64,000 nt of DNA from Bdellovibrionales bacterium (GTDB lineage: Bacteria; Bdellovibrionota; Bdellovibrionia; Bdellovibrionales; CAYMLA01). The stretch is from positions 1,824,001 to 1,888,000 of the forward strand of contig OZ244239.1 of the NCBI GenBank assembly GCA_965217115.1, written 5' to 3'. Position numbers and translations under genes: made by a program. Below are positions 28,235-54,148 of this stretch, in pieces. Each line of letters opens with the position of its first letter. The first letter of the stretch is position 1. Under the pieces are notes generated by a model, which was given only the letters and a program-made list of their open reading frames with translations, was not told where the DNA came from and ran no database searches.

Positions 28235-28310
28235 GCTGGTTTAGCTCAGTTGGTAGAGCAGCTGATTTGTAATCAGCAGGTCATCAGTTCGACTCTGGTA
28301 ACCAGCTCCA
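28235..28310 (+). tRNA. tRNA-Thr(TGT)
   Basis: Cloverleaf with GCTGGTT/AACCAGC acceptor stem, anticodon TGT, TTCG T-loop and encoded CCA. Confidence 0.96.
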
Positions 28311-28387
28311 ATTTTTTGCTCTTTGATATTTGATTGTTTTTTTAGGTTCATCTTTTGTTGGTTCTTGTTTGGCAAAAGATCCCCTGT

Positions 28388-28472
28388 GGAGGAGTGCCCG
28401 AGTGGTTAAAGGGGACGGACTGTAAATCCGTTGGCTCTGCCTACATAGGTTCAAATCCTATCTCCTCCACCA
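28388..28472 (+). tRNA. tRNA-Tyr(GTA)
   Basis: GGAGGAG/CTCCTCC acceptor stem, anticodon GTA, long variable arm and CCA. Confidence 0.96.
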
Positions 28473-28562
28473 TTTATTGAATTCATTATTTGGGTTGAGA
28501 ATTTTTTTTAGAGTGTCGGTTTTTAATTTTTTTAAGCGATGTTGTAAAAATAATTTTTTTGG

Positions 28563-28639
28563 GCGGGAGTAGCTCAATTGGCTAGAGTATTAGCCTTCCA
28601 AGCTGAGGGTTGCGAGTTCGAGTCTCGTCTCCCGCTCCA
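28563..28639 (+). tRNA. tRNA-Gly(TCC)
   Basis: GCGGGAG/CTCCCGC acceptor stem, anticodon TCC and CCA. Confidence 0.96.
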
Positions 28640-28674
28640 TTTTTTGGGTTGTCTGTAATAGTTAGTTTATAGAT

Positions 28675-28749
28675 GCCCATGTGGCTCAGTGGTAGAGCAC
28701 ACCCTTGGTAAGGGTGAGATCGCGGGTTCGATTCTCGCCATGGGCTCCA
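28675..28749 (+). tRNA. tRNA-Thr(GGT)
   Basis: GCCCATG/CATGGGC acceptor stem, anticodon GGT and CCA. Completes the classic Thr-Tyr-Gly-Thr-tuf arrangement. Confidence 0.96.
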
Positions 28750-28848
28750 TTGTTTGAGTTAGAGTTAGTTAAAGAAGAGTTTTAAATTTATTTTTTAATA
28801 TTAAAGTCCTCTAAAATTGAGGACAACATTTCAGAAGGAGTTTTAAGA

Positions 28849-30039
28849 ATGTCTAAAGAAAAGTTTAATCGAGAGAAGCCCCACGTTAACATCGGAACGA
28901 TTGGTCACGTTGATCATGGAAAGACGACTCTAACGGCAGCTATTTGTACGACTCTTGCTAAGTCAGGAGGGTCAGAGGCGATGGCTTATGATCAAATTGA
29001 TAAAGCGCCTGAAGAGCGTGAGCGTGGGATTACTATTTCAACAGCCCATGTTGAGTATGAAACGGCCAACCGCCATTATGCCCACGTTGATTGTCCAGGA
29101 CATGCGGATTATGTAAAAAACATGATCACTGGTGCGGCTCAAATGGATGGTGCTATTCTTGTTGTTTCGGCGGCAGATGGCCCTATGCCTCAAACCCGTG
29201 AGCATATTCTTTTGGCTCGTCAGGTGGGAGTTCCTGCAGTTGTTGTGTATATGAACAAGGCAGACCAAGTTGATGACGCAGAGCTTCTTGATCTTGTTGA
29301 GTTAGAGATTCGGGAGCTTCTCTCTAAGTATGAGTTTCCTGGCGACGATGTCCCTATTATTAAGGGTTCAGCATTGAAGGCCCTTGAGGGAGATGATTCT
29401 GATATTGGGATGAAGTCAGTTCACGCTTTGATGGCGTCAGTGGATGAGTATATCCCAACTCCTGAGCGTGATGTGGATAAGAAATTCTTGATGCCGATTG
29501 AGGATGTTTTCTCTATTTCTGGTCGTGGTACGGTTGTTACAGGTCGTGTTGAGCGTGGAATCGTGAAAGTCGGTGACGAGATTGAAATTGTTGGTATTCG
29601 CGACACAACCAAAACGATTGTGACGGGTATTGAAATGTTCCGTAAGCTTTTGGATGAGGGGCGCGCGGGGGATAACTGTGGTTGTCTGCTTCGTGGTACT
29701 AAGAAGGAAGAAGTGGAGCGTGGTCAAGTTTTGGCGATTCCAGGAACAATCAAGCCACATAAGAAGTTTAAGGCTGAAGCCTATATTTTGACCAAAGAAG
29801 AGGGTGGTCGTCACACGCCATTTTTTAATGGCTATCGTCCACAATTTTACTTTCGTACAACAGATGTAACTGGTGTTGTGACCCTCAAAGAAGGTGTCGA
29901 GATGGTGATGCCAGGTGACCGTATCGAGATGGAAGGTGATTTGATTGTTCCTATTGCCATGGAAAAAGAACTTCGCTTCGCTATCCGTGAAGGTGGTCGC
30001 ACAGTGGGAGCAGGTGTCGTGACGGAGATTGTTGGGTAA
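28849..30039 (+). CDS. tuf: Elongation factor Tu
   Basis: [20 protein letters not shown] and '[13 protein letters not shown]'. Confidence 0.99.
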
Positions 30040-30067
30040 TAGTCTCAATATTTCTTAAATTATAGAG

Positions 30068-30096
30068 TTGACCTTTATTTGAGGGAGCCTTATGTT
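30068..30096 (+). promoter_or_regulatory. Sigma70-type promoter for tRNA-Trp-secE-nusG
   Basis: TTGACC-17 nt-TATGTT. Confidence 0.55.
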
Positions 30097-30177
30097 AGGC
30101 CCCCTTAGTTACATGGGGTTGTTTTGGTGCGTTTTTTGCTCTGTTGCTGAAAAAAATGTTACCTATTTTTTTTTTGC

Positions 30178-30254
30178 AGGGTAGTAGCTCTAATTGGTAG
30201 AGCGAATGACTCCAAATCATTAGGTTGGGGGTTCGAATCCCTCCTGCCCTGCCA
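30178..30254 (+). tRNA. tRNA-Trp(CCA)
   Basis: AGGGTAG/CTGCCCT acceptor stem, anticodon CCA, GGTTCGAATCC T arm and CCA end. Upstream of secE. Confidence 0.95.
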
Positions 30255-43247: not shown

Positions 43248-43352
43248 TTTTTCTGCAGATAACCTTCGCATTTCTTCGTTGTTGCGTCGGCGCTGTACGC
43301 TTGTACAGCTTTCTCCTTACGCCTTGAACTGCTCGGTTCTCTTTGAAAAAAA
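43248..43352. repeat. REP/MITE-like long imperfect hairpin directly after rpsG
   Basis: Apical GCTGTAC-gctt-GTACAGC palindrome with outer pairings AACC/GGTT and TTTTC/GAAAA. Only one copy in this window. Confidence 0.5.
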
Positions 43353-43566
43353 CATTATTGTATTGGTTAGTCATTAAATACCTCCTAGGATTATTTTTTA
43401 TGAAAAAAACCATAGCTGGGTCATGACCCAGAAGTTAAAGGGGGATTTGTGAGAGGGGATATATTCACGCTTGGGTGATTCAATTTTGGTTTATAGAATT
43501 GAGATATGAAGCTGAAGGTGTAGAACTCTGGTAGATAATTATATTATTTCTAGAGATATTTTTAAA

Positions 43567-44361
43567 TTAGGACATGCTGCTAAAGATCCATGAAAATAGA
43601 ATGGAAAATTTAACAAAAAGGATACTAATCACAAGTATAATTACCCCAGATGAATAAAGAGTTATAGAGATTAGAGATTTTCCCAAGCTTTTTAGTGCCT
43701 CTAAAATCTTGTTGTCTTTGTCGTCATTATTCTCATTTGTCTCTTCTTCATCTAATTTTAATGCAGCAACTGGAATTATATAGGAGAGATCTATATTTTC
43801 AATATTAAAATTACTGTTATTTTTATCTTTATTCATACTCTGTAAAGCCATAAGAATTATTTGAGAGATATTTTTTCTACTATCGTCATCAATGACTCTA
43901 GTATTTCCCCCCATATAATTAGAATGCTTTTTCAGTTCTTCCACGACCTCTTTACCTATGCTGGTATTTTCAAATTTTAGGAATAAAGAATTTAAAAATA
44001 AGTTTTTATTTTTTTCAAAGAGTTCTTGAGTGTGTTGATTATAAAGTTTTTGCATCTCTTCCAGATTTCTTTCGATTCCCAAGACCGAATAAGCATTCAA
44101 AAAAACGAAAAATTCACTGATGATAGCTGACAGGGTAAAGCAGAACATCCAAAGAATAGGGCCTTATCCCGAGATGCTTGAGATAGAATTATAATTGATT
44201 AGAAATAGCACCAATGATGTTGAGTAAATTAGTAAGGAATTTTTTGAAAGAGAATAAGATGATTTCGTTATTAAATGGCTAAAGTGGGTTATTATTTCTA
44301 ATGTAAAGATATCTGCATTTATATCAGCAAGGGCAGTGTTAAGGTCGCTCTTTAGGCTCAT
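43567..44361 (-). pseudogene. About 264-codon, 3-TM membrane protein gene interrupted by an in-frame TAA at 44164-44166 (possible retron-linked effector)
   Basis: ORFs 44164..44361 and 43567..44148 share a frame and are separated by one stop (...ISSISG*GPILWMF...). ATG lies 4 nt after the RT stop with a GAGG SD. Confidence 0.7.
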
Positions 44362-44365
44362 GCTT

Positions 44366-45313
44366 TCAAACCTCGTTATTGCTTATAAGTTGTATAGCCC
44401 TGTTTTTTAATTCATTAGAGATATTTTTTTTAAGATTAATATATTTTTCTTTCCCTTCAATTTCTCGTGCCACTTGTACTTTCCCCTGTATAGACTTTAA
44501 ACAAGTAGAAGAGAGTTTAGTTAAGTCCTTATTGACAGCCCTTAGGGGGCTAAAAATTTCTTTTTTTAAGCTATGCTTTGTTGAGTGTTTTCCATTGTGA
44601 ATAACATTACCTGTTACAACTTTAGGACTGTTTTCATCAAAGTATCTTGTTTTCTTCTTTTTCACCTTAATCTCATGCTTTTTGAGCACTGTTCGGATTA
44701 AAGAATCAAGTTTTCTATCAATCCGATAACTTTTGGAGAAGGTCATGTCATCGACATAGAGAGTAAACTTCATTCCTTCCTGTTTTGATAAAGATTGTAT
44801 TTCATCGAAAATAGGTTTATGCATCCAAAAAGCCAGTACAGGGCTTACTGGGCTTCCAGTTGGTAGATAGCCATCTTTAAATATCAAGTCACAAAGAAAC
44901 CAAGATGTATCGGCATTAATTTTTAGGTAATGGTGGAAGAACCTGAAGCCGTACTCAGTCTTACAAGTTGGGAAAAAATTATCAATATCCATGTTTATTA
45001 GGTGTTTGGCTTCAAGGTGAAACTGTGCATTTTTTATATAACTTTCCCCTTTACATGATTTCAGGTAATTAGGTGGTTGAATCTGAGAAAGCAAACTTGC
45101 TAGAATATCATGAAGTTTTCTTAACTTTCCTATTGGTACAGTCGTTAGGCGCACTTTGCCTTTTTTGTCCTTGATGGTCCCATTTTTGAAAAGTTTATTT
45201 CTATCTTTCCAAATAGATTCAAGCTCTTTTCTACTCATGCTAAAAATCTTAGCAAGAAGTCCTTTTCCTTTTAAACAGTATAGTCTATGCTTTTCTTTCT
45301 GTACTAGAGTCAT
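44366..45313 (-). CDS. Retron reverse transcriptase (type VI-like)
   Basis: Retron region X NAQFH, 'DIDNFFP', 'LPTGSPVSP', catalytic YVDD and region Y VTG. 315 aa with no maturase or nuclease domain. Confidence 0.92.
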   Translation of the reverse strand: MTLVQKEKHRLYCLKGKGLLAKIFSMSRKELESIWKDRNKLFKNGTIKDKKGKVRLTTVPIGKLRKLHDILASLLSQIQPPNYLKSCKGESYIKNAQFHLEAKHLINMDIDNFFPTCKTEYGFRFFHHYLKINADTSWFLCDLIFKDGYLPTGSPVSPVLAFWMHKPIFDEIQSLSKQEGMKFTLYVDDMTFSKSYRIDRKLDSLIRTVLKKHEIKVKKKKTRYFDENSPKVVTGNVIHNGKHSTKHSLKKEIFSPLRAVNKDLTKLSSTCLKSIQGKVQVAREIEGKEKYINLKKNISNELKNRAIQLISNNEV

Positions 45314-45599
45314 TAGAGACCTTTTCTACGAATTGGAGAAATTTAAGTATAGATTTACGGAAGAACTCAGGAGTTTTAAATTTTGGATCAGCACTATCAA
45401 GTTGTTCATTAAAAAACATGATAGATGACACCTCGAGGTTAAATATGTTTGCATATTTTTCAATAAGCTTAAGATTTGGCCTTCTTTTATTCGTTTCCAC
45501 TTCAGACAGAAAACCTGGTGAGATTTTTAGTTCTCTGGCCAAGTGGGTTAATTTCTTATCATGATAAACACGAATCAGTCGTAAAGCTTCTCCAATCAT
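45285..45599 (-). CDS. XRE/Cro-type HTH protein of the retron
   Basis: 'GEALRLIR...LARELKISPGFLSEVETNKRRP' HTH. AGGAGAGG SD. Overlaps the RT start by 29 nt. Confidence 0.9.
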   Translation of the reverse strand: MIGEALRLIRVYHDKKLTHLARELKISPGFLSEVETNKRRPNLKLIEKYANIFNLEVSSIMFFNEQLDSADPKFKTPEFFRKSILKFLQFVEKVSNDSSTERKA

Positions 45600-45627
45600 T
45601 TTCCTCTCCTAAAAAAATTAGACTTGG

Positions 45628-45774
45628 TTAGTCACCTCGACTCCCCCAGAAAAGGTCTATAACGAAAAAAACAACTCTAAGGATTAACTTTCGATACTTC
45701 CTTAAAAATTGTCGTCCTTTCTGGTAGGCACTCGGGGTAACACAAAACTGCGGTATTCTTCTTCTTATCTTCAT
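45628..45774 (-). CDS. Unannotated 48-aa small protein, candidate retron toxin: MKIRRRIPQFCVTPSAYQKGRQFLRKYRKLILRVVFFVIDLFWGSRGD
   Basis: Hand-translated: ATG at 45774, TAA at 45628-45630, SD GAGAGG just upstream, ends 28 nt before the HTH start. Below the ORF-track length cut-off. Confidence 0.75.
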   Translation of the reverse strand: MKIRRRIPQFCVTPSAYQKGRQFLRKYRKLILRVVFFVIDLFWGSRGD

Positions 45775-45783
45775 AAAAAGACC

Positions 45784-45832
45784 TCTCTTTGTTATGAAGA
45801 GCTTTATTGCTCTCCTCCCTTGAACAAAGAGA
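45784..45832 (-). promoter_or_regulatory. Hairpin sequestering the small-protein ribosome-binding site
   Basis: Perfect 10-bp arms TCTCTTTGTT/AACAAAGAGA plus an inner GAGAGC/GCTCTT stem. The 3' arm overlaps the SD. Confidence 0.65.
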
Positions 45833-45867
45833 TCGTTCGCAAATTTGCATCACCAAGTCTACTTTAA

Positions 45868-46030
45868 GCACGAGAATTCCCTTTCTCGTGCGGCCTTGGG
45901 GAGTATAATGTCTAAGTAGCTTAGTTAATAAATTACTTAGTCACAATAGGTTTGGCCCCAAGAAGCCTAGTGTTTCCACTAGTCACAGGTACACTTTTTG
46001 TGTACCCCCTTTAATAAGGGAATCCCTATT
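45868..46030 (-). ncRNA. Retron ncRNA (msr-msd) candidate
   Basis: Two short msr-like hairpins (45988-46006; 45967-45982 with a GAAA loop), a long msd-like stem (45895-45962) and a1/a2-like pairing of 46016-46026 with 45873-45883. TATAAT lies at 46040-46045 on the minus strand. Confidence 0.75.
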
Positions 46031-46371
46031 GAATACATCATTATAATTGCAGGTTTTTATCTAAGCTTCAAGAATAAAATTCACCTATAGAAGAATAATG
46101 CGTTAAGTTATGGGAGAATGGTAATATTGCCTTCTTAATATTCTAAAAGAAGAAATATAATTGGAGTTTTTTTTGGGCGAGGCTTGTTCGGGATAACCCA
46201 AATGATAGTCTCATTTAGAAAATAGATTTTTTTCTTTATAGATTTAATCAAACTTCAAGGAGTCGTTTTAAGTTGGCATTTAGGGCTTAGGCTAATCTTT
46301 CAGCAACAGCCCTGGTGATTTTTCTTGCGCTACTTTCGTATTTAGAGCCTCTCTACCTGTTCTTACTTTTT

Positions 46372-49080
46372 TTAAAATTTGGTAACAAATGACTTAAAAT
46401 GATCAATATTCCGAGAGTCTGTGATTTCATCATGAGGAATTAGAAGGTATGCCCAAGGCTTCTTACCATGCTTTTTAGCAAAATCACTTGCTGCACTACA
46501 ATATTCTTGAGCTGCCCTTGCTTTTTCTATTACGTCAGGGCTTTTAAGTTCATTCTTTGCTTTAATTTCCACGAGATAATGATGGGCTTCCGTTTCAACA
46601 ACAAAATCAGGTTCATACAGCCTTGAGTGGTGATCCCAATAAATATTAAATTGCTTAATTGAGGGTCTAAGCCATTTTAAAACTTTCTCATCTTCATCAA
46701 GAAGTGAAGCAAATGCTTTCTCTGGTAAAGAATCAAATTTATAAATAGTATGGCATGATTTCTTATAAAAATCGAAAACCCTTTTTGTTAGTTCCGCTTT
46801 TGTCGCAACATGATCTCTAGAGTCATAAATTTTATCCTCTTTGAACTTGCTATAGTTATGGTTTTCAATTCTTGTAAATGGCTTAATCTGCGCGTCCTCA
46901 AACTTACCAGTCTTACAATAAAATTTTTCCATCATCTGAGCATAGATAAATTCAGCTATCTTAACTCTATAATACTGAATGACATTATCTATTTCAGAGT
47001 CTTTTGAAAGATAAGATTTAAAATGTGCCAAGGCTTCGTCACTAAGTTGGTAAAGTAAATCTCCATGCTCATCATAATCAATTTCATCATAATTCAATAA
47101 CTCTGACACGATTGTCTTAAGCCAACTTTGCTCACCAGAGGAGCTATCGTTTGTCATAGAGTGGGTAAGTGTCTTTTTTTGATCTTGTAGATAACGCACA
47201 AAAATCTCTTCTTCAATAGGCGGAAACTTTGCCATTGTACTGGTATCGAGGTTGAATTTTTTAAAGCCAAATTCAGTGTCATTTTTTAGTTGAATAGTGA
47301 TTCTTGGTATCTCTATTGTATTTTCAATAATTGATTCAATTATTTTTTTATATTTCTCCTCAAAGACTTCATCTACCTGAACATCTTCGAGGTTAATAGA
47401 TAAAACTCCCTGAGATATTTTCTTTTTTATAGCTTTTTTTAATTTATCTTTAACTTCTGCTTTTGATAAATCTTCAATATTGGTTACATTATCGCTATTG
47501 AAGCAGCTTTCAAATAATTCCTTCTCCACTAAAAGCTTATCTGTTTCAACTTTCTTTTCTAATTCATCGTCGATAGTCTCAATTTCAACGGCTCTTTGAA
47601 TAAATTTCTCCTCTACTGGAGTAACAGCTGGAACAACCTCTTGATTCTTCTTGAAAATGTCATCATCAGAATCAATAAAGTATTGTTTCATTACTATAGA
47701 GTTAGGGTCATTAGCTTTTTTAATCAAGTCTTCAAAACTTTCATGGGCCATAACAGTTAAGGTATCAACCTCTGGAACTCCTGTAATTTCACCATATGGA
47801 AGCCGCAATCCCCTCCCCAGTGTTTGCTCTGTGAGAATATTGGCCGCGAATGAACGAAGAGGAACAATTGTGTAAAGGTTAGTCACGTCCCAGCCTTCTT
47901 TTAGCATATTACAATGAATTACTATTTCAAATTCATTCTTAGGGTCTTCTAGCTCTAAAAGCTTTTGAATATTTTCTTCTTTTTCAGTTCCCCTTTGATT
48001 AGAGTGAATCTCAAAGACCTTAGCCGCATATTGTCCATTACAAAAAGATTCAGATTGAATCAGTGAACGAAGTTCCTCAGCATGCTTAGTATCTTGAGCC
48101 ACAACTAAAACAAAAGGGCGAACTAATGGTTTTTTATGATTTCGAGCGTATATTTCAAGATTTGTTTTTGTTATCTCATGCACATGCATAGCATCTGATA
48201 ACTTCATTTTATCAAGCCCCTCGGGTGACAAATCTTTAAGCTGTTTTTTTGTGAGATTTTTCCTCGTTGCCGCTGCGGGCTCTTTAACAAAGCCATCTTT
48301 AATTGCATGGGCCAGTGTGTACTCATATACAATGTTTTTAAAGGGGACACCTTTGGTTGATGTAGGAGTTGCTGTTAGTTCTAAGCCCAAGATCGGTTTC
48401 AACTCATTTAGAACTTCCATGGCCCTAGATGCTCTATAGTGATGAGACTCATCCATTAACAAAACAAGGTCTTCAGTATTTTGTAAAAATTGAAAATAAG
48501 ACTCTCCAAAGTATTCAGAAATTCTTCTAATCTTTGGAGATTTCCCTCCTCTTGCTTCAGAATTTATTTTTGAGATATTAAAAATATTTATGATGACCTC
48601 ATCTGAAAAAAGGGGGGTTTGACCAAAGCGATCTAGAGAAGTTTTTTTTACCGTATTAGTTCTTAAATAATTATCACCAGTGATAACTTTTGGTTCAATC
48701 TGTATCCCCTTAAAAACATATTTAGGATGGGTGTTTCTACTAAAATCAATAATCAATTTATTATAAATGGTTAAGTTAGGAGCCAAAACTAAAAAATTTC
48801 TCAAGCCTTTTTCTTTATAAAGATAGCTGATAAAAGCTCCCATAAGCCTAGTCTTTCCTACTCCTGTTGCTAGAGCAAAAGCTACTGAAGGAAAGCCACG
48901 TTCAAAATTAATTAGCTTGTCAAACTCTCCACACCTTTTAAATGTTAATAAAGCGTCATCTAATTTTATATTTTTATTTAATTCAATACTTGAAATGAGT
49001 TTTGATAATATTTCAAGACTCTCCCTTTGTGGCTTTCTCAAGCTTAATCTTTGGTTTACATAATTGATATTTGAACTCAT
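46372..49080 (-). CDS. res: Type III restriction endonuclease subunit (Res)
   Basis: Walker A ATGVGKT, DESHH, 'LTATP', 'EGWDV', 'QTLGRGLR' and C-terminal PD-(D/E)xK 'EPDFVV...VEIK'. Confidence 0.9.
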   Translation of the reverse strand: MSSNINYVNQRLSLRKPQRESLEILSKLISSIELNKNIKLDDALLTFKRCGEFDKLINFERGFPSVAFALATGVGKTRLMGAFISYLYKEKGLRNFLVLAPNLTIYNKLIIDFSRNTHPKYVFKGIQIEPKVITGDNYLRTNTVKKTSLDRFGQTPLFSDEVIINIFNISKINSEARGGKSPKIRRISEYFGESYFQFLQNTEDLVLLMDESHHYRASRAMEVLNELKPILGLELTATPTSTKGVPFKNIVYEYTLAHAIKDGFVKEPAAATRKNLTKKQLKDLSPEGLDKMKLSDAMHVHEITKTNLEIYARNHKKPLVRPFVLVVAQDTKHAEELRSLIQSESFCNGQYAAKVFEIHSNQRGTEKEENIQKLLELEDPKNEFEIVIHCNMLKEGWDVTNLYTIVPLRSFAANILTEQTLGRGLRLPYGEITGVPEVDTLTVMAHESFEDLIKKANDPNSIVMKQYFIDSDDDIFKKNQEVVPAVTPVEEKFIQRAVEIETIDDELEKKVETDKLLVEKELFESCFNSDNVTNIEDLSKAEVKDKLKKAIKKKISQGVLSINLEDVQVDEVFEEKYKKIIESIIENTIEIPRITIQLKNDTEFGFKKFNLDTSTMAKFPPIEEEIFVRYLQDQKKTLTHSMTNDSSSGEQSWLKTIVSELLNYDEIDYDEHGDLLYQLSDEALAHFKSYLSKDSEIDNVIQYYRVKIAEFIYAQMMEKFYCKTGKFEDAQIKPFTRIENHNYSKFKEDKIYDSRDHVATKAELTKRVFDFYKKSCHTIYKFDSLPEKAFASLLDEDEKVLKWLRPSIKQFNIYWDHHSRLYEPDFVVETEAHHYLVEIKAKNELKSPDVIEKARAAQEYCSAASDFAKKHGKKPWAYLLIPHDEITDSRNIDHFKSFVTKF

Positions 49081-49107
49081 AATTTACCCTTAAACTTCCG
49101 TCCCCAT

Positions 49108-50766
49108 TTATAAGTCTTCTTGAATTGGCTCTATGATATTGAGGCTATAATCATCTTTTCCAAACTCACAACGACCAAGTAACATTTGTGGAATTTTCTT
49201 AAGAGTTATATTTGGATATTTGTCTTTTTTAACTCTAAAAGCCTTTGCACATATTAAAAGAAATTCATTTTCTGACATTTGGCTATAAATTCTATCTAAA
49301 TGTTCAGAGGTTAAAAATTGAGTAGTAACAAAGATAAAATCTTTTTCAGATGAAAATCCTTGTTTCCAGTAAACAGTTTCATTTGGATAAAACTTAAATT
49401 TTTCATGCTTACATACTGCCTCTGACAACTGTATTGCATTATATTCTTTATTAATAACCCAATTTCCTCGATCATCTTTTTGCAATAAGCTTGGAGCAAG
49501 ATCATAAAATGTAAAACCACTCCCCCCATTCCAGTTCATAATTTTGGTAATTCCACTCGCATCCTTTCCTTTTACAACATTAGACAATCTTTTATGACAA
49601 TGTGAAAATGAATGATCTCTTAATTCTATACCAATCCACTTTCGATTCATCTTGTGAGCAACACTAGCAGTAGTTCCTGATCCTAAAAATGAATCAAGAA
49701 CCCAATCCCCTTCTTCCGTGCTCATATCCAGGCAACGCTTAATTAATAATTCAGGTTTTTTTCCATTAGGAAAGCTAACATCACCTTCTTTGTGTAAATT
49801 GTTTGATAATAAATCATCCCAAATTGTTGATAAAGCTTGTCCTGTTACGTACCTATTATTTATGAACTTAATTTTGCTGCTATAGAAAAGAAGTTGCTCG
49901 CCATTTAAAAAATAGTGATCAGGCTTTCCATCTCGTTCACATCTATAAACCTTATCAGCATTTTTTCTTGATAAGTCTAAAAATTCCCGAGCATCTGAAC
50001 TTACATCCTTATCTTTAATTCTAGCGGTACGAACAACGCGCTGAGGCTCCTTCAACACAAAGTCATTAAACTTATTCTCAAGTTCATCTTCATATTTTTT
50101 CTTAAGCTCTTTCTGTTTGCAGTGTAAATTTTTTGCCAATGCGGATCTTAAAGTGACTAGATTCCAATTTTCAAAGGACTCATCATAATTTTCAATATAC
50201 TTGGAGTAGCGACTGTCCCTATCAGTTTCAGTAAATGTTTTGAATGACTTCCATTTACTTTTATCTTTTGCGTAGACAAGGATATAATTCGCTGTAGATA
50301 CTAGTCCCGGGTTTACTGCTTTTGGCCCAGAAACCGAACTTTGTTTAAAAGTTACCATCGAAACTCTATTTGAACGGCCAAATATTTCATCAGTTAGTAC
50401 ACATAAATATGCAAATTCATTATCATCTATGTGAATAAAGAGAGTCCCTGATTCATGCATTAGGGAATGAATAATCTCCAGACGGGACTTCATCATTGAG
50501 AGCCAAATTGAGTGCTCAACTCCATCATCGTAATGCTCAAAAGCTTGTTGTGTATTAAAAGGAGGGTCTATATACACACATTGAATTTTTTCTTTAAAAC
50601 CGCTCTCTAAAGCTTTCAATGCGAGTAGGTTATCTCCATGAATTAACATATTTTCACTTTTTGTGCCCTCTGATTTCTCATCAATTGGCATAAGTATTCT
50701 TGGCTCCAGAATGGAAGTATCATCTTTCCCAACCCAATCTAACTCTAATCTTTGCTTATAGCTCAT
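49108..50766 (-). CDS. mod: Type III DNA adenine methyltransferase (Mod)
   Basis: 'IHGDNLLAL', catalytic DPPF, 'KKPE' and SAM motif 'DSFLGSGTT' in beta-class order. Confidence 0.9.
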   Translation of the reverse strand: MSYKQRLELDWVGKDDTSILEPRILMPIDEKSEGTKSENMLIHGDNLLALKALESGFKEKIQCVYIDPPFNTQQAFEHYDDGVEHSIWLSMMKSRLEIIHSLMHESGTLFIHIDDNEFAYLCVLTDEIFGRSNRVSMVTFKQSSVSGPKAVNPGLVSTANYILVYAKDKSKWKSFKTFTETDRDSRYSKYIENYDESFENWNLVTLRSALAKNLHCKQKELKKKYEDELENKFNDFVLKEPQRVVRTARIKDKDVSSDAREFLDLSRKNADKVYRCERDGKPDHYFLNGEQLLFYSSKIKFINNRYVTGQALSTIWDDLLSNNLHKEGDVSFPNGKKPELLIKRCLDMSTEEGDWVLDSFLGSGTTASVAHKMNRKWIGIELRDHSFSHCHKRLSNVVKGKDASGITKIMNWNGGSGFTFYDLAPSLLQKDDRGNWVINKEYNAIQLSEAVCKHEKFKFYPNETVYWKQGFSSEKDFIFVTTQFLTSEHLDRIYSQMSENEFLLICAKAFRVKKDKYPNITLKKIPQMLLGRCEFGKDDYSLNIIEPIQEDL

Positions 50767-50775
50767 AATATCCCC

Positions 50776-53763
50776 TTAAATGATTTTCCACTTTATTTTT
50801 ATTATATTCTTTTCTTTATGTTCTAATTTCATTCGTTTTTCAATATCTTCAATTAAATGTTCTTTTTCTTTTTCAATACGATCTTGTTCTTCAAAAAGCT
50901 TTCTTCTCATGTTATTTCTCTTCTTCTCAAGATTTTTTGCTACTCTCTGCGCCTTAACTTTTTTATCTAAAAGGCTGATATTTTTTGAATCTTTCTTTAT
51001 TTTCTTAATCTCCTTATCAAGTTCTTTAATCTCGATCTCAAGACCCTCTTTAATGTCTTCGCTCCATTTATCTAATTTTTCAGACTCCTCGATAAAGAAT
51101 GAATGATTGCGTTTTTCAATTTCCTTTAAATACAAAGACGTTGTCTGATCTTTAATTTTAAAAAGACTTTGTTCTACCTGTTTAGAAGTTTCGTCATTAC
51201 AAGATGAGACAGAAGCATTAATGTTGAACATTTTTCGAATTACTTCTGCTGGCACGTCATCTCCATCTTTAGTTATACCAACGTATACCATCTCTTCACT
51301 ATGATCTAATGAATTAACATTAAGCAAGCAGATTTCTAGCCAGCCAGATTGACCAATATATTCCTCTAAAGCTGTTATTTTATTTTCATAAGAAGATAAA
51401 TCAAACGTCAGGCTAGCTAATTCGAGCTGGGAAGATTTTGCGTTCTCGATAACTCTCTGGCCAAGCGGATGGTTTAACCTATAGCTATGTGAATCACCCT
51501 CTCTTTCTTGGCCTTTAGAGATCATTTTATATGCCCCAAGCTTGTATTGACCGGGAGAAATCTCTGAAAATGGGGATTTTTTTAACTCAAAAGAATAATT
51601 TGAATCGTCGAAATCAGCATATTCATTTAGCGTGTTCTTTGTCAGGTTCCAAAACATATTAGAGACATTATCCACCCTTTTTTCTGCTTCATCTAACTGC
51701 ATTTTTAATTTTGAATGAACATCTTCATCAAATTTCTTTAAAACAATATTCTTTGTTTTGCTTAATTTTTCTGAAATTTGTTTAGAAGAAGATATTTGTA
51801 GGTTCTCAAAGGCCTCACTAATTTCCTCTTCAGTTCGACAGGACATATATATCTTTAAAATTCTCTTTTCAATATCGTGACCGTCTATAATATCACCAAG
51901 TACTTCGTCACTTGCACCAAATGCTCCACGAAATAAATTGAACTTTTCCTGCAAGAGTTCTAAAATTCTCAAGTCAGCAATGTTTTTGGTATTTACAAAA
52001 TTAACCACTATTACGTCTAATTTTTGACCATACCTATGACAACGACCTATTCGTTGTTCAATCCGTTGTGGGTTCCATGGCAAATCATAGTTAATTAAAA
52101 GGTTACAAAATTGTAAATTAAGCCCTTCCGAGCCAGCTTCAGTTGTGAGAAAAATTTTTTTGACCTCTTTAAACTGCTTAACGAGAAACCTTCTTTCTTC
52201 TGCTCCTCCTGAATCACCATTAAATATTACGACTTCATTCTCTACATCTATTCCCATCTCTGACAGCCTTCTCATAATGTAGCCCTGGGTTGATCTAAAT
52301 TCAGTAAAGATAACGGCTTTTTCTGGCCAACCTTCATGTCGTGCCTTTTCAAATTGTTGGGTTAAAGCATTTACCAAGGCATCGGCTTTTTTATTTTGCT
52401 TGATTTCCAAACTCAGAACAATCATTTTCAAAATAATTTCTGATTCTTCCTGAATCTCTTCAGAACTGAACAGCGTTGTTGCTTCTTCAGGATTCTGAGA
52501 GTTTTCTATATCTTGATCTGAATAATTCTCTTTAACCTCACCTTCTTCTTCAGAAACCTCCTCAACAGGAGTGTTACTTTTAAAAGATTTTTTCAAGCCT
52601 TCATAATTTTTTGAAATAAGGTCAGCAAAGAGTTTTTTCTCAAATTTCTCTAGTGCTTCTGATTTTCTCCCATCATCAAGAGTTAAGCTTTGAGTAATAC
52701 TGTCTAATAAACTATTAAATAGGGTCTCATTGTCAATAGAAACGGTTGCCAAAAGAAGCCTTTTATATAAATTTAAAAGGCTGTTTTTTATCGCAAAGGT
52801 TGAGCTTGCAATAAGTTTTAAGTAAACAAGTGTTAACAATGGAAGGGCCGAGGCAGGAATAGAGATAAGAGTTTCTCTTCTTAGGAAGATTTCAAAGCTG
52901 ATCCTCAGTTCTTCTTCATAGTCTGTAGGGTCATAGGTAAAAGTAACGGTCTTTCTGTTGGTATAATTAATATATTCAAGAACATTTTTTCTAAGTTCTC
53001 TTCTAAAGAAATTTTTCATTCGACTTTGTAGCTCTATCATTTGACCCTCACGAACAGAGTCAGACAAATTACAAAAAAGACTTTGAAAGCTTTCTCTTGT
53101 TCCTAAAATGTATTCATCAACAAAGCTTGTGAGTCCATAAAGCTCCATTAGGTGATTTTGCATAGGAGTCGCGGTTAAAAGTAATTTTTTAAATGGCTGA
53201 AGAGTGTCTTTGATACGTTTAGCACGCTTTGCTTCCTTTTTTCCTTTTTTCCATACATTTCTCAATTTATGAGCTTCATCTATAACAATTAAATCCCATG
53301 CTTCCTTTTTAATAATTTCATGATAGCTATCTACAGAATGTTCATTTGTAATAATTATTTTTTCTTCTCTATTTAGTGGGGTTTCTTTTTCTGGATTATT
53401 TATTTTCTTAAAATCTTGCCCTGCCATGATTTCACTGTCTAAAAAGAAGAGATTTGATAATTCATCTTTCCATTGATGGCGAAGTGACTTAGGAGCGATG
53501 ATTAAAAATGATCTCTTCCCCTCAGCCCATAGCTGTGAAAGAACAAGACCTGCCTCAATTGTTTTTCCAAGGCCAACTTCGTCAGCTAAAATACATCCTT
53601 TACTCAAAGGGTTCTTCAAAGCAAATATTGCTGCATTTATTTGATGAGGATTTAGGTCAATACAGGCATCAAACATTGCCTGAGAAAGACGATTAACTGA
53701 ATCTCCAGCTTGAAGCAGTGATAATTCATGTGCGAATAATTTAGCGTGGTAGTTAGTGTTCAA
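50776..53763 (-). CDS. SNF2-family helicase/ATPase associated with the type III R-M operon
   Basis: LADEVGLGKT, DEAH, LLTATPMQN, EGLNLQ, WNPQRIEQRIGR and a coiled-coil C-terminus. TTG start. Confidence 0.9.
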   Translation of the reverse strand: MNTNYHAKLFAHELSLLQAGDSVNRLSQAMFDACIDLNPHQINAAIFALKNPLSKGCILADEVGLGKTIEAGLVLSQLWAEGKRSFLIIAPKSLRHQWKDELSNLFFLDSEIMAGQDFKKINNPEKETPLNREEKIIITNEHSVDSYHEIIKKEAWDLIVIDEAHKLRNVWKKGKKEAKRAKRIKDTLQPFKKLLLTATPMQNHLMELYGLTSFVDEYILGTRESFQSLFCNLSDSVREGQMIELQSRMKNFFRRELRKNVLEYINYTNRKTVTFTYDPTDYEEELRISFEIFLRRETLISIPASALPLLTLVYLKLIASSTFAIKNSLLNLYKRLLLATVSIDNETLFNSLLDSITQSLTLDDGRKSEALEKFEKKLFADLISKNYEGLKKSFKSNTPVEEVSEEEGEVKENYSDQDIENSQNPEEATTLFSSEEIQEESEIILKMIVLSLEIKQNKKADALVNALTQQFEKARHEGWPEKAVIFTEFRSTQGYIMRRLSEMGIDVENEVVIFNGDSGGAEERRFLVKQFKEVKKIFLTTEAGSEGLNLQFCNLLINYDLPWNPQRIEQRIGRCHRYGQKLDVIVVNFVNTKNIADLRILELLQEKFNLFRGAFGASDEVLGDIIDGHDIEKRILKIYMSCRTEEEISEAFENLQISSSKQISEKLSKTKNIVLKKFDEDVHSKLKMQLDEAEKRVDNVSNMFWNLTKNTLNEYADFDDSNYSFELKKSPFSEISPGQYKLGAYKMISKGQEREGDSHSYRLNHPLGQRVIENAKSSQLELASLTFDLSSYENKITALEEYIGQSGWLEICLLNVNSLDHSEEMVYVGITKDGDDVPAEVIRKMFNINASVSSCNDETSKQVEQSLFKIKDQTTSLYLKEIEKRNHSFFIEESEKLDKWSEDIKEGLEIEIKELDKEIKKIKKDSKNISLLDKKVKAQRVAKNLEKKRNNMRRKLFEEQDRIEKEKEHLIEDIEKRMKLEHKEKNIIKIKWKII

Positions 53764-54148
53764 CCTTTACTACCTCGCTCATCGAACTTTCTCCCCTTAA
53801 TTAATTAAATAAAACTTATGCGAATATTCAAACACTGATTGTCTTTTTTGACAAACTATTGCTAAGATAAAAAAATCATTCTCTTGACTAGACGAATTTT
53901 TTAGTGCCAAGACATAAGTTCCCCTCAGATTGCAAGTAACTGAAGTCTTGGCTGCAAAATTTTTGGTATTGGATGTCTTACTCCGAGGCTTGAGTGAGGT
54001 CTAGCGGTGTTATAGTGAACTCCTCAACGTTCAATTAATTTTGTTATCTGAGCGTCTGTGCTTTGGTGTTTCTCTCTCTAAGAAAAAACCTGTTAAGACC
54101 AAAAAATCAAAAAAAACCAAAGAAAAACATAGAGGATTTGGGGTGGGG

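Follow-up and report, generated by a model that had tools for sequence, protein, structure and literature searches.

Does a 48-residue open reading frame (ORF) within the RNA of a retron encode a toxic effector, and is its translation gated by the structure of that RNA? The question is raised by a 64-kb stretch of DNA from a Bdellovibrionales bacterium (GCA_965217115.1, contig OZ244239.1, positions 1,824,001-1,888,000), which we refer to as the window and to which all coordinates are relative. Over 46.03-44.37 kb the minus strand, on which every feature of the locus lies, carries in order a structured leader without long ORFs, the 48-residue ORF, which we term the small protein (SP) gene, a helix-turn-helix (HTH) gene and a reverse transcriptase (RT) gene. 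An original prediction held that this hidden ORF specifies a toxin whose Shine-Dalgarno (SD) sequence is locked in a hairpin and released by reverse transcription or its product, and it pointed to a similar mechanism in the type VI Retron-Vpa2. That precedent exists: Zhang et al. (2025) describe, for Retron-Vpa2 of Vibrio parahaemolyticus, a hybrid RNA (hyRNA) of ~470 nucleotides (nt) that comprises msr-msd and the SP ORF, with a toxic SP that is translationally repressed and is derepressed by multicopy single-stranded DNA (msDNA) (bioRxiv 10.1101/2025.10.22.683967). The best overall explanation of the window locus is that it encodes the SP effector of a Type VI retron, most likely with a Vpa2-like mechanism, a reading to which we assign a probability of roughly 0.6.

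The small-protein gene and its retron

The retron was classified by the scheme of Mestre et al. 2020 as implemented in PADLOC. The RT (315 amino acids (aa), 45313..44366) matches the RT_VI profile at 1e-71 (239.5 bits, profile positions 3-276 of 279), the runner-up being RT_III-A at 4.7e-42. The HTH protein (104 aa, 45599..45285), whose gene has the SD sequence AGGAGAGG at 45610..45603 and shares a 29-nt overlap with the start of the RT gene, matches HTH_VI (6.9e-28, profile positions 1-91 of 92). Pfam places RVT_1 in the RT and HTH_3 (1.4e-6) in the HTH protein. The catalytic YVDD of the RT is an intact YxDD motif, with Y186, V187, D188 and D189 invariant among 36 aligned RTs, and R7 of the HTH protein is invariant across 15 sequences. 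An RT of the Type VI clade, a Cro/C1-type HTH protein encoded directly upstream of and overlapping it, and an intact YxDD are found together, and on these sequence features the locus is a Type VI retron, in agreement with the original identification of a retron.

The SP gene (45774..45628 including the stop codon) begins with an ATG at 45774..45772 and ends with a TAA at 45630..45628; its stop-to-stop frame (45849..45631) contains no earlier in-frame start, and the sequence of this putative toxic effector is exactly as first quoted. Its strongly basic character and hydrophobic C-terminal segment are likewise borne out, with 12 Lys+Arg against 2 Asp+Glu residues, a pI of 11.6, 10 Lys/Arg and no acidic residue among residues 1-29, and a hydrophobicity peak (Kyte-Doolittle (KD) value 2.44) over residues 30-40, LILRVVFFVID. 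An AlphaFold2 model built on a 15-sequence alignment predicts helices at residues 14-26 and 28-47, with a mean pLDDT of 72.6 overall and of 91 over residues 31-40. SP fits the description of a Type VI effector, which is a small helical protein encoded between the non-coding RNA (ncRNA) and the HTH gene and possessing a hydrophobic C-terminal core. The suggestion that SP is membrane-active finds no support, because the hydrophobic stretch (residues 30-43) is too short and is broken by charged residues, including R33 and D40; SP has no helix of transmembrane length, that is of at least ~19 uncharged residues, and its best 19-residue window has a mean KD of only 1.21.

Comparison of related loci settles that the ORF is a gene. 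A profile search of genome contigs, based on an alignment of 36 RTs, gave 80 loci, and an HTH gene directly precedes the RT gene in 74 of these at E<=1e-3 (75 at E<=10). Syntenic small ORFs before the HTH gene, proposed originally as a check, are present in 72 of the 74 loci; they end 26-117 nt before the HTH gene and are mostly of 40-69 aa with a good SD, and the two loci without such an ORF are cut by contig ends. These automatic ORF picks are partly doubtful, since some (for example L023 and L037) have no SD and several begin too early. A covariance model described below puts the riboregulator and the SP start further downstream than the automatic picks in L039, L034, L076 and L026, from which shorter SPs follow, for example ~63 aa rather than 96 aa in L039. 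Peptides visibly like the window SP are found at eight loci (L020, L011, L022, L031, L002, L005, L008 and L042), where the motif F-L-W-K-H-R-K is followed by a hydrophobic helix; the corresponding sequence in the window is F-L-R-K-Y-R-K-L-I-L-R-V-V-F-F-V-I.

A hidden Markov model built from 8 syntenic ORFs, from which the window was excluded, was run against every stop-to-stop ORF of 25 aa or more in the window (1307 in total); the SP frame ranked first with an E-value of 7e-4 and the next frame scored 0.26. A 14-sequence profile, again excluding the window, also ranked the SP frame first (E 7.4e-5; next 0.15). The latter profile matches 30 of the 10300 ORFs of the 80 loci, and 28 of these matches were scored as syntenic; the remaining two, in L068 and L069, stop shortly before the RT match, and in L068 the run at E<=10 has an HTH match immediately after the ORF. 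An overlapping 64-aa frame with a GTG start (45871..45677) was rejected, as it gave an E-value of 96 with the 8-sequence SP profile and lacks conservation. At E<=0.01 a profile search of a large protein collection yielded 133 small proteins. None of the 120 matches listed carries a Pfam domain; a few are entered as "hypothetical protein" and the majority without a name. The small effector genes of such retrons are missed or left unnamed in routine annotation.

Relatives of the window SP come from Pseudobdellovibrionaceae, Bacteriovoracaceae, Ignavibacteriota, Fibrobacteria and other groups. Different small-protein families fill the slot before the HTH gene at other loci, in line with the description of several SP clusters by Garcia-Rodriguez et al. 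(bioRxiv 10.64898/2026.04.27.721009). Two RT-bearing loci (L006 and L080) have enough upstream sequence and no HTH match; L006 is on a Bacteriovoracaceae chromosome and its RT is 36% identical to that of the window. These two RTs may be Type VI-like without an HTH protein, and ~78% of Type VI entries encode one according to the same preprint (bioRxiv 10.64898/2026.04.27.721009).

Searches with SP alone were less productive. SP has no match in Pfam or PADLOC, a word-based search with the 48-aa peptide returned no homologue, and the best score in the ESM Atlas was 0.76, which gave no lead. A phmmer search against 1.84 billion representatives produced two matches, both to long repeat proteins, which we rejected as SP homologues because their scores were inflated by repeats. 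These failures would suit an ORF that is untranslated and, together with its hairpin, a by-product of a structured ncRNA. That view is almost certainly wrong, as the ORF shows profile homology to syntenic ORFs that are kept open across several phyla, a well-spaced SD is found at most of the loci, the profile search of proteins was rich in matches, and SP has been shown to be a toxin in both Retron-Vpa2 and Retron-Sen3, as described in the respective preprints. Judged by its sequence relationships, the 48-aa ORF is a gene and a member of a family of small ORFs that precede the HTH gene in related loci.

Structure of the leader and the ribosome-binding site

The SD sequence of the SP gene, GAGAGG (45787..45782), is located 7 nt before the ATG, and the first four of its six bases sit in the 3' arm of a perfect 10-base-pair (bp) hairpin, an overlap that had been stated originally. 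This riboregulator hairpin (45832..45784) comprises an anti-SD arm (45832-45823), the second copy of a direct repeat (45821-45816), an inner helix of 7 bp within the loop (45815..45809 / 45802..45796) and the SD-side arm (45793-45784). Its folding energy is -18.8 kcal/mol alone and -23.6 kcal/mol in an 81-nt context (z = -3.37), where none of 200 shuffles was as stable. A second stem-loop of 9 bp (45781..45760; -6.0 kcal/mol alone) contains the AU of the AUG start codon in the minimum free energy (MFE) fold, and the probability that the AUG is paired is 0.64. [quoted passage not shown] The second repeat copy with its 3' neighbours (45821-45812) is itself SD-like, reading AAGGGAGGAG in the window and CGGGAGGG or CAGGAGGG in many relatives, and has no start codon at SD distance.

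Pairing of the SD was compared across 52 non-redundant loci, window included, which were reduced from 72 loci with enough upstream sequence. The mean pairing probability of the SP SD (positions -15..-5) is 0.79 in the window, and across the 52 loci the median is 0.78, with values of at least 0.7 in 38 of them. Both comparison sets are lower: the median is 0.52 for the SDs of the HTH genes at these loci, 13/52 of which reach 0.7, and 0.55 for 33 long window ORFs, only two of which attain 0.79. Pairing is predicted as well for the HTH gene of the window, at its SD (AGGAGAGG, 45610-45603) and its start codon, with a probability of 0.97 in a local fold, and the MFE fold has an 8-bp stem at this site (45618-45611/45605-45598). 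The Sen3 preprint likewise predicts a stem on the HTH RBS (bioRxiv 10.64898/2026.04.27.721009).

A hairpin followed by a run of T residues could also be an intrinsic terminator or attenuator, which would end the ncRNA before SP and leave the SP, HTH and RT genes dependent on read-through. The sequence UCUUUUUAU (45781..45773) begins 2 nt after the stem, and in one relative (L002) a T-run likewise separates SD and ATG. It is nevertheless highly unlikely that termination is the main role of this hairpin, given that a terminator scan made no call there, the T-run is missing in most relatives, the HTH and RT genes lie downstream and must be expressed, and RNA-seq coverage of Retron-Vpa2, as presented in its preprint, runs on through SP (bioRxiv 10.1101/2025.10.22.683967). 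We consider it very probable that the 48-aa ORF is the SP gene of a Type VI retron and that its RBS is structured.

The hairpin forms part of a larger folded domain. A stretch of 491 nt folds at -157 kcal/mol (z = -6.5), and none of 100 shuffles was as stable; a search of 45200-46400 against Rfam at a permissive threshold gave chance-level matches only (E 0.6-9). Elements were assigned from the MFE fold of 46035..45596. Three short stem-loops at the 5' end (46030-46013, 46007-45987 and 45981-45968) would represent the msr-like part of the putative hybrid RNA. They are followed by a long imperfect stem-loop (45967..45892), with helices at 45962-45956/45901-45895 and 45940-45934/45918-45912, which is a candidate msd and the putative template for reverse transcription on account of its likeness to the long stem-loop covered by Vpa2 msDNA. 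Next comes a GC-rich hairpin of 9 bp (45891..45868), with the first copy of the direct repeat in its loop, directly 5' of one arm of a long-range inverted repeat.

This 5' arm, IR1 (TAGACTTGGT, 45861..45852), pairs perfectly with the 3' arm, IR2 (45628..45619), whose first base is also the last of the SP stop codon, so that the two bracket the riboregulator and the SP ORF. The match is 10/10 bp, and an exact 10-nt match was reached by none of 200 shuffles; the duplex has an energy of -22.2 kcal/mol (p = 0.005). In the MFE fold a folded arm of SP coding sequence lies between the AUG hairpin and IR2. In 30 of the 52 loci an IR1-IR2 duplex exceeds 95% of shuffles in strength (p<=0.05). In MFE folds the window and most of its eight nearest SP relatives have these elements in one and the same order, with IR arms whose sequences are unrelated; in L008 the SD pairs with a downstream segment. 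A short motif, G-T-G-A-[CT], occurs just 3' of IR1 in the window (45851-45845) and in L002, L022, L031 and L042.

Compensatory changes were sought among 17 closer relatives. RNAalifold recovered only the GC hairpin from these sequences, and the riboregulator helices were therefore named from the fold of one member and their pairs counted. Over the 27 named pairs of the GC hairpin, the anti-SD:SD helix and the inner helix, 82% are paired, against 39-55% when the arms are slid, and none of 500 shuffles reaches the observed value; two of the three helices were taken from one member's fold, a choice that favours structure. Double changes occur at 23 of the 27 pairs. The GC hairpin has an equivalent in the relatives, where 10/10 pairs are altered on both sides among the 17 loci.

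Direct repeats and the control of translation

The sequence AAGGGA is present twice in the leader, once in the loop of the GC hairpin (45883..45878) and once in the riboregulator loop (45821..45816), directly 3' of the anti-SD arm and at -47 from the start codon, which gives an offset of 62 nt. A repeat of at least 6 nt with an offset of 55-80 and its second copy in the riboregulator is found in 42 of the 52 loci, compared with 6-14 of 52 in other offset bins (four of equal width and one narrower) and 12.0 +/- 2.7 in shuffles, where the maximum was 19. For repeats of at least 7 nt the corresponding figures are 29/52 loci, 2-5 in the other bins and 3.4 +/- 2.0 in shuffles. The sequence of the repeat varies among lineages and the two copies are identical within a locus, examples being TGGATGG, CCGGGAG, TGTGAGAG, AGAGTGA, CAAAGTGA and GCGAGA.

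In the mechanism that we propose, the leader and the SP coding region would form one structured 'hybrid RNA'. In the resting state the SP SD would be paired to the upstream anti-SD arm and the AUG would be held in the second small hairpin, and the long-range IR1/IR2 helix of 10 bp would close the whole domain of riboregulator and ORF; with this closure and with the SD and AUG paired, little SP would be made. The HTH protein would restrain reverse transcription. Upon phage infection msDNA would accumulate, and the complementary DNA (cDNA) of the GC-hairpin loop, carrying the complement of AAGGGA, could pair with the AAGGGA of the riboregulator.

The release step of the original prediction matches the mechanism published for Retron-Vpa2. 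As reported in that preprint, the SP RBS and AUG of Vpa2 are in stem-loops, the HTH protein represses reverse transcription and its R7D mutant is toxic, msDNA is needed for SP translation and is sufficient in trans, and direct repeats of 7 nt occur in an msd loop and in the riboregulator loop, which would let cDNA made from the first copy pair with the second (bioRxiv 10.1101/2025.10.22.683967). For the window we infer the limits of the transcript, reverse transcription of 45967-45868, the toxicity of SP and the derepression step, the last from the analogy with Vpa2 and from the comparative signals described above. That msDNA-triggered translation of the Vpa2 type is the operative control here appears, by this analogy, slightly better than an even bet.

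A number of observations weigh against the Vpa2-like reading, among them that of Retron-Sen3 of Salmonella enterica (cl2075; Garcia-Rodriguez et al. 2026), which has IR1/IR2 and a predicted sequestered SP RBS, and nevertheless makes single-stranded DNA (ssDNA) and SP constitutively and is controlled post-translationally by its HTH protein as antitoxin (bioRxiv 10.64898/2026.04.27.721009). The window locus might work in the same way: SP would be made constitutively, at least at a low level, held by binding of the HTH antitoxin and released by phage interference with host functions (RecBCD, for example), and the RNA would serve as a scaffold for RT and HTH and not to switch translation. As that preprint describes, Sen3 shares the gene order and the sequestered RBS of the window, yet tagged SP was detected without phage, and the Sen3 HTH protein neutralises SP without ncRNA or RT; in addition, the window HTH protein keeps the R7 whose replacement by aspartate is toxic in Vpa2. 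A predicted hairpin hence does not prove silence, and the contention that SP is silent by default holds as far as the RBS and AUG are in predicted stem-loops, but silence itself is not assured.

Several features nonetheless set the window apart from Sen3 as described. The window SP has 48 aa, close to the 55 aa of Vpa2 SP as quoted in the Sen3 preprint, whereas Sen3 SP, at 79 aa, is extended by ~25 residues at its N-terminus and by an amphipathic segment at its C-terminus that is predicted to be the main HTH interface (bioRxiv 10.64898/2026.04.27.721009). The window carries the pair of loop repeats that is used by the Vpa2 model, while the term 'direct repeat' is absent from the main text on Sen3. 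Retrons of cl2075 are mainly from Beta- and Gammaproteobacteria, according to the same source, and the relatives of the window SP are from other groups. The short SP and the loop repeats favour control as in Vpa2, and we regard control as in Sen3 as rather unlikely for the window.

The remaining points against the Vpa2-like reading concern the window and the searches made with it. The closest RT relative in the searched collections is only 37% identical, so that the transfer of a mechanism spans a long distance. Perfect 10-bp hairpins with a loop of 3-40 nt occur at 4 sites in the window, against 2.5 +/- 1.6 in block shuffles; what lifts the SP hairpin above chance is that it sits on a conserved gene's SD and recurs in relatives, and not the 10-bp stem itself. 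The window repeat, at 6 nt, is not significant alone (p = 0.85, shuffles). RNAalifold found no consensus structure in a MAFFT alignment of 43 sequences, which we attribute to an alignment that is too gappy. A covariance model (R1) built from 17 distant relatives, with the window excluded, misses the window region under default filters; with filters off it places 45905..45769 first on both strands and over its full length, at only 13.2 bits and an E-value of ~0.1. The reach of this model is poor, given that it finds only two of the eight nearest SP relatives at the expected places with E<1 (0.001 for L042, 0.17 for L002). A scan for sigma-70-like consensus sequences passed no promoter on the minus strand.

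The Vpa2-like reading may be taken a step further. The msDNA of each Type VI retron could be 'addressed' to its own riboregulator loop, in a system whose SP family is unnamed in the preprints and whose template is outside IR1/IR2; we hold this joint reading as tentative, and doubt that all its parts will stand. If it is correct, the co-variation of the two repeat copies would be comparative support for a DNA-triggered toehold switch. The SP family of the window would then be defined by the motif F-L-[WR]-K-[HY]-R-K and be represented in Pseudobdellovibrionaceae, Bacteriovoracaceae, Ignavibacteriota, Fibrobacteria, Terriglobia and Oceanispirochaeta metagenome-assembled genomes. A template outside the IR1/IR2 duplex would also be a permuted arrangement relative to the canonical a1-msr-msd-a2.

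Genomic setting and known systems

The retron is part of a low-GC island (43300-53900), entirely on the minus strand and directly after rpsG, in which the GC fraction is 0.32-0.37 compared with 0.41-0.47 in the flanks. The island also encodes an SNF2-family helicase (995 aa, 53763..50776), an N6/N4 DNA methylase (50766..49108) and a Type III restriction res subunit (49080..46372; REase_III 5.7e-172), and since these occur together with the retron it looks like a defence island. No same-strand gene follows rpsG, the usual gene order being rpsL-rpsG-fusA. Two ORFs downstream of the RT gene (65 aa and 193 aa; 44361-43567) have no Pfam or PADLOC match and are without relatives at E<=0.1 among the 80 loci, which places them outside the conserved system; the 193-aa protein has hydrophobic ends. 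Elsewhere in the window, a cluster of tRNA genes at 28235-30254 (Thr, Tyr, Gly, Thr, then Trp) upstream of a ribosomal-protein/rpoB-rpoC block represents ordinary housekeeping context.

The mechanism itself is not new, as it is already in two preprints, and the locus therefore opens no new question. The locus would carry the Type VI design into a remote, AT-rich lineage; this design places a toxin gene inside the retron RNA, with RNA structure and reverse-transcribed DNA gating its translation. Three published features gain independent support at the sequence level from the comparison of 52 loci, namely occlusion of the RBS, an inverted repeat on either side of the ORF and the pair of loop repeats.

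Retron-Vpa2, as described, is alike in its order of leader, SP, HTH and RT, in a short SP with a hydrophobic C-terminal helix (48 aa in the window, 55 aa in Vpa2), in the placing of RBS and start codon in two stem-loops and in the conserved R7 of the HTH protein. Both also have an inverted repeat that links the sequence after the SP stop to a region beside the msd arm. The candidate template in the window, a long stem-loop plus a hairpin of ~24 nt, resembles Vpa2 msDNA of 63 + 23 nt, and the direct repeat in the msd-side and riboregulator loops is of 6 nt (AAGGGA) in the window and 7 nt in Vpa2. The host lineage of the window appears to be different from that of Vpa2.

With Retron-Sen3, again as described, the window shares the gene order, a predicted sequestered RBS, an SP gene inside structured RNA and an HTH gene that overlaps or adjoins the RT gene; in both, IR1 comes just after the long stem-loop and IR2 just after the SP stop. 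The architecture of Sen3 SP is not that of the window SP, which has 48 aa and a helix that ends at residue 47. Sen3, with its constitutive SP and ssDNA and post-translational control by the HTH protein, also differs from the mode proposed for the window.

More distant parallels are found in canonical retrons such as Retron-Eco1 and Retron-Sen2, which likewise combine an RT and a structured ncRNA template with a toxic effector and follow an abortive-infection logic. Their msDNA is abundant and serves as antitoxin, and a separate gene, located outside the ncRNA, encodes the effector protein. In the window, by contrast, the structured RNA itself contains the effector ORF, which msDNA would switch on in the proposed mechanism. 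Toehold-type riboregulators and type I toxin mRNAs such as hok keep the SD locked in a stem until a nucleic acid acting in trans, or refolding, frees it. The window has in common with these switches a small putative-toxin ORF with a stem-locked SD; no antisense gene was seen, though no search aimed at one was made, and the proposed trigger would be ssDNA that is reverse-transcribed from the same RNA, rather than an antisense RNA.

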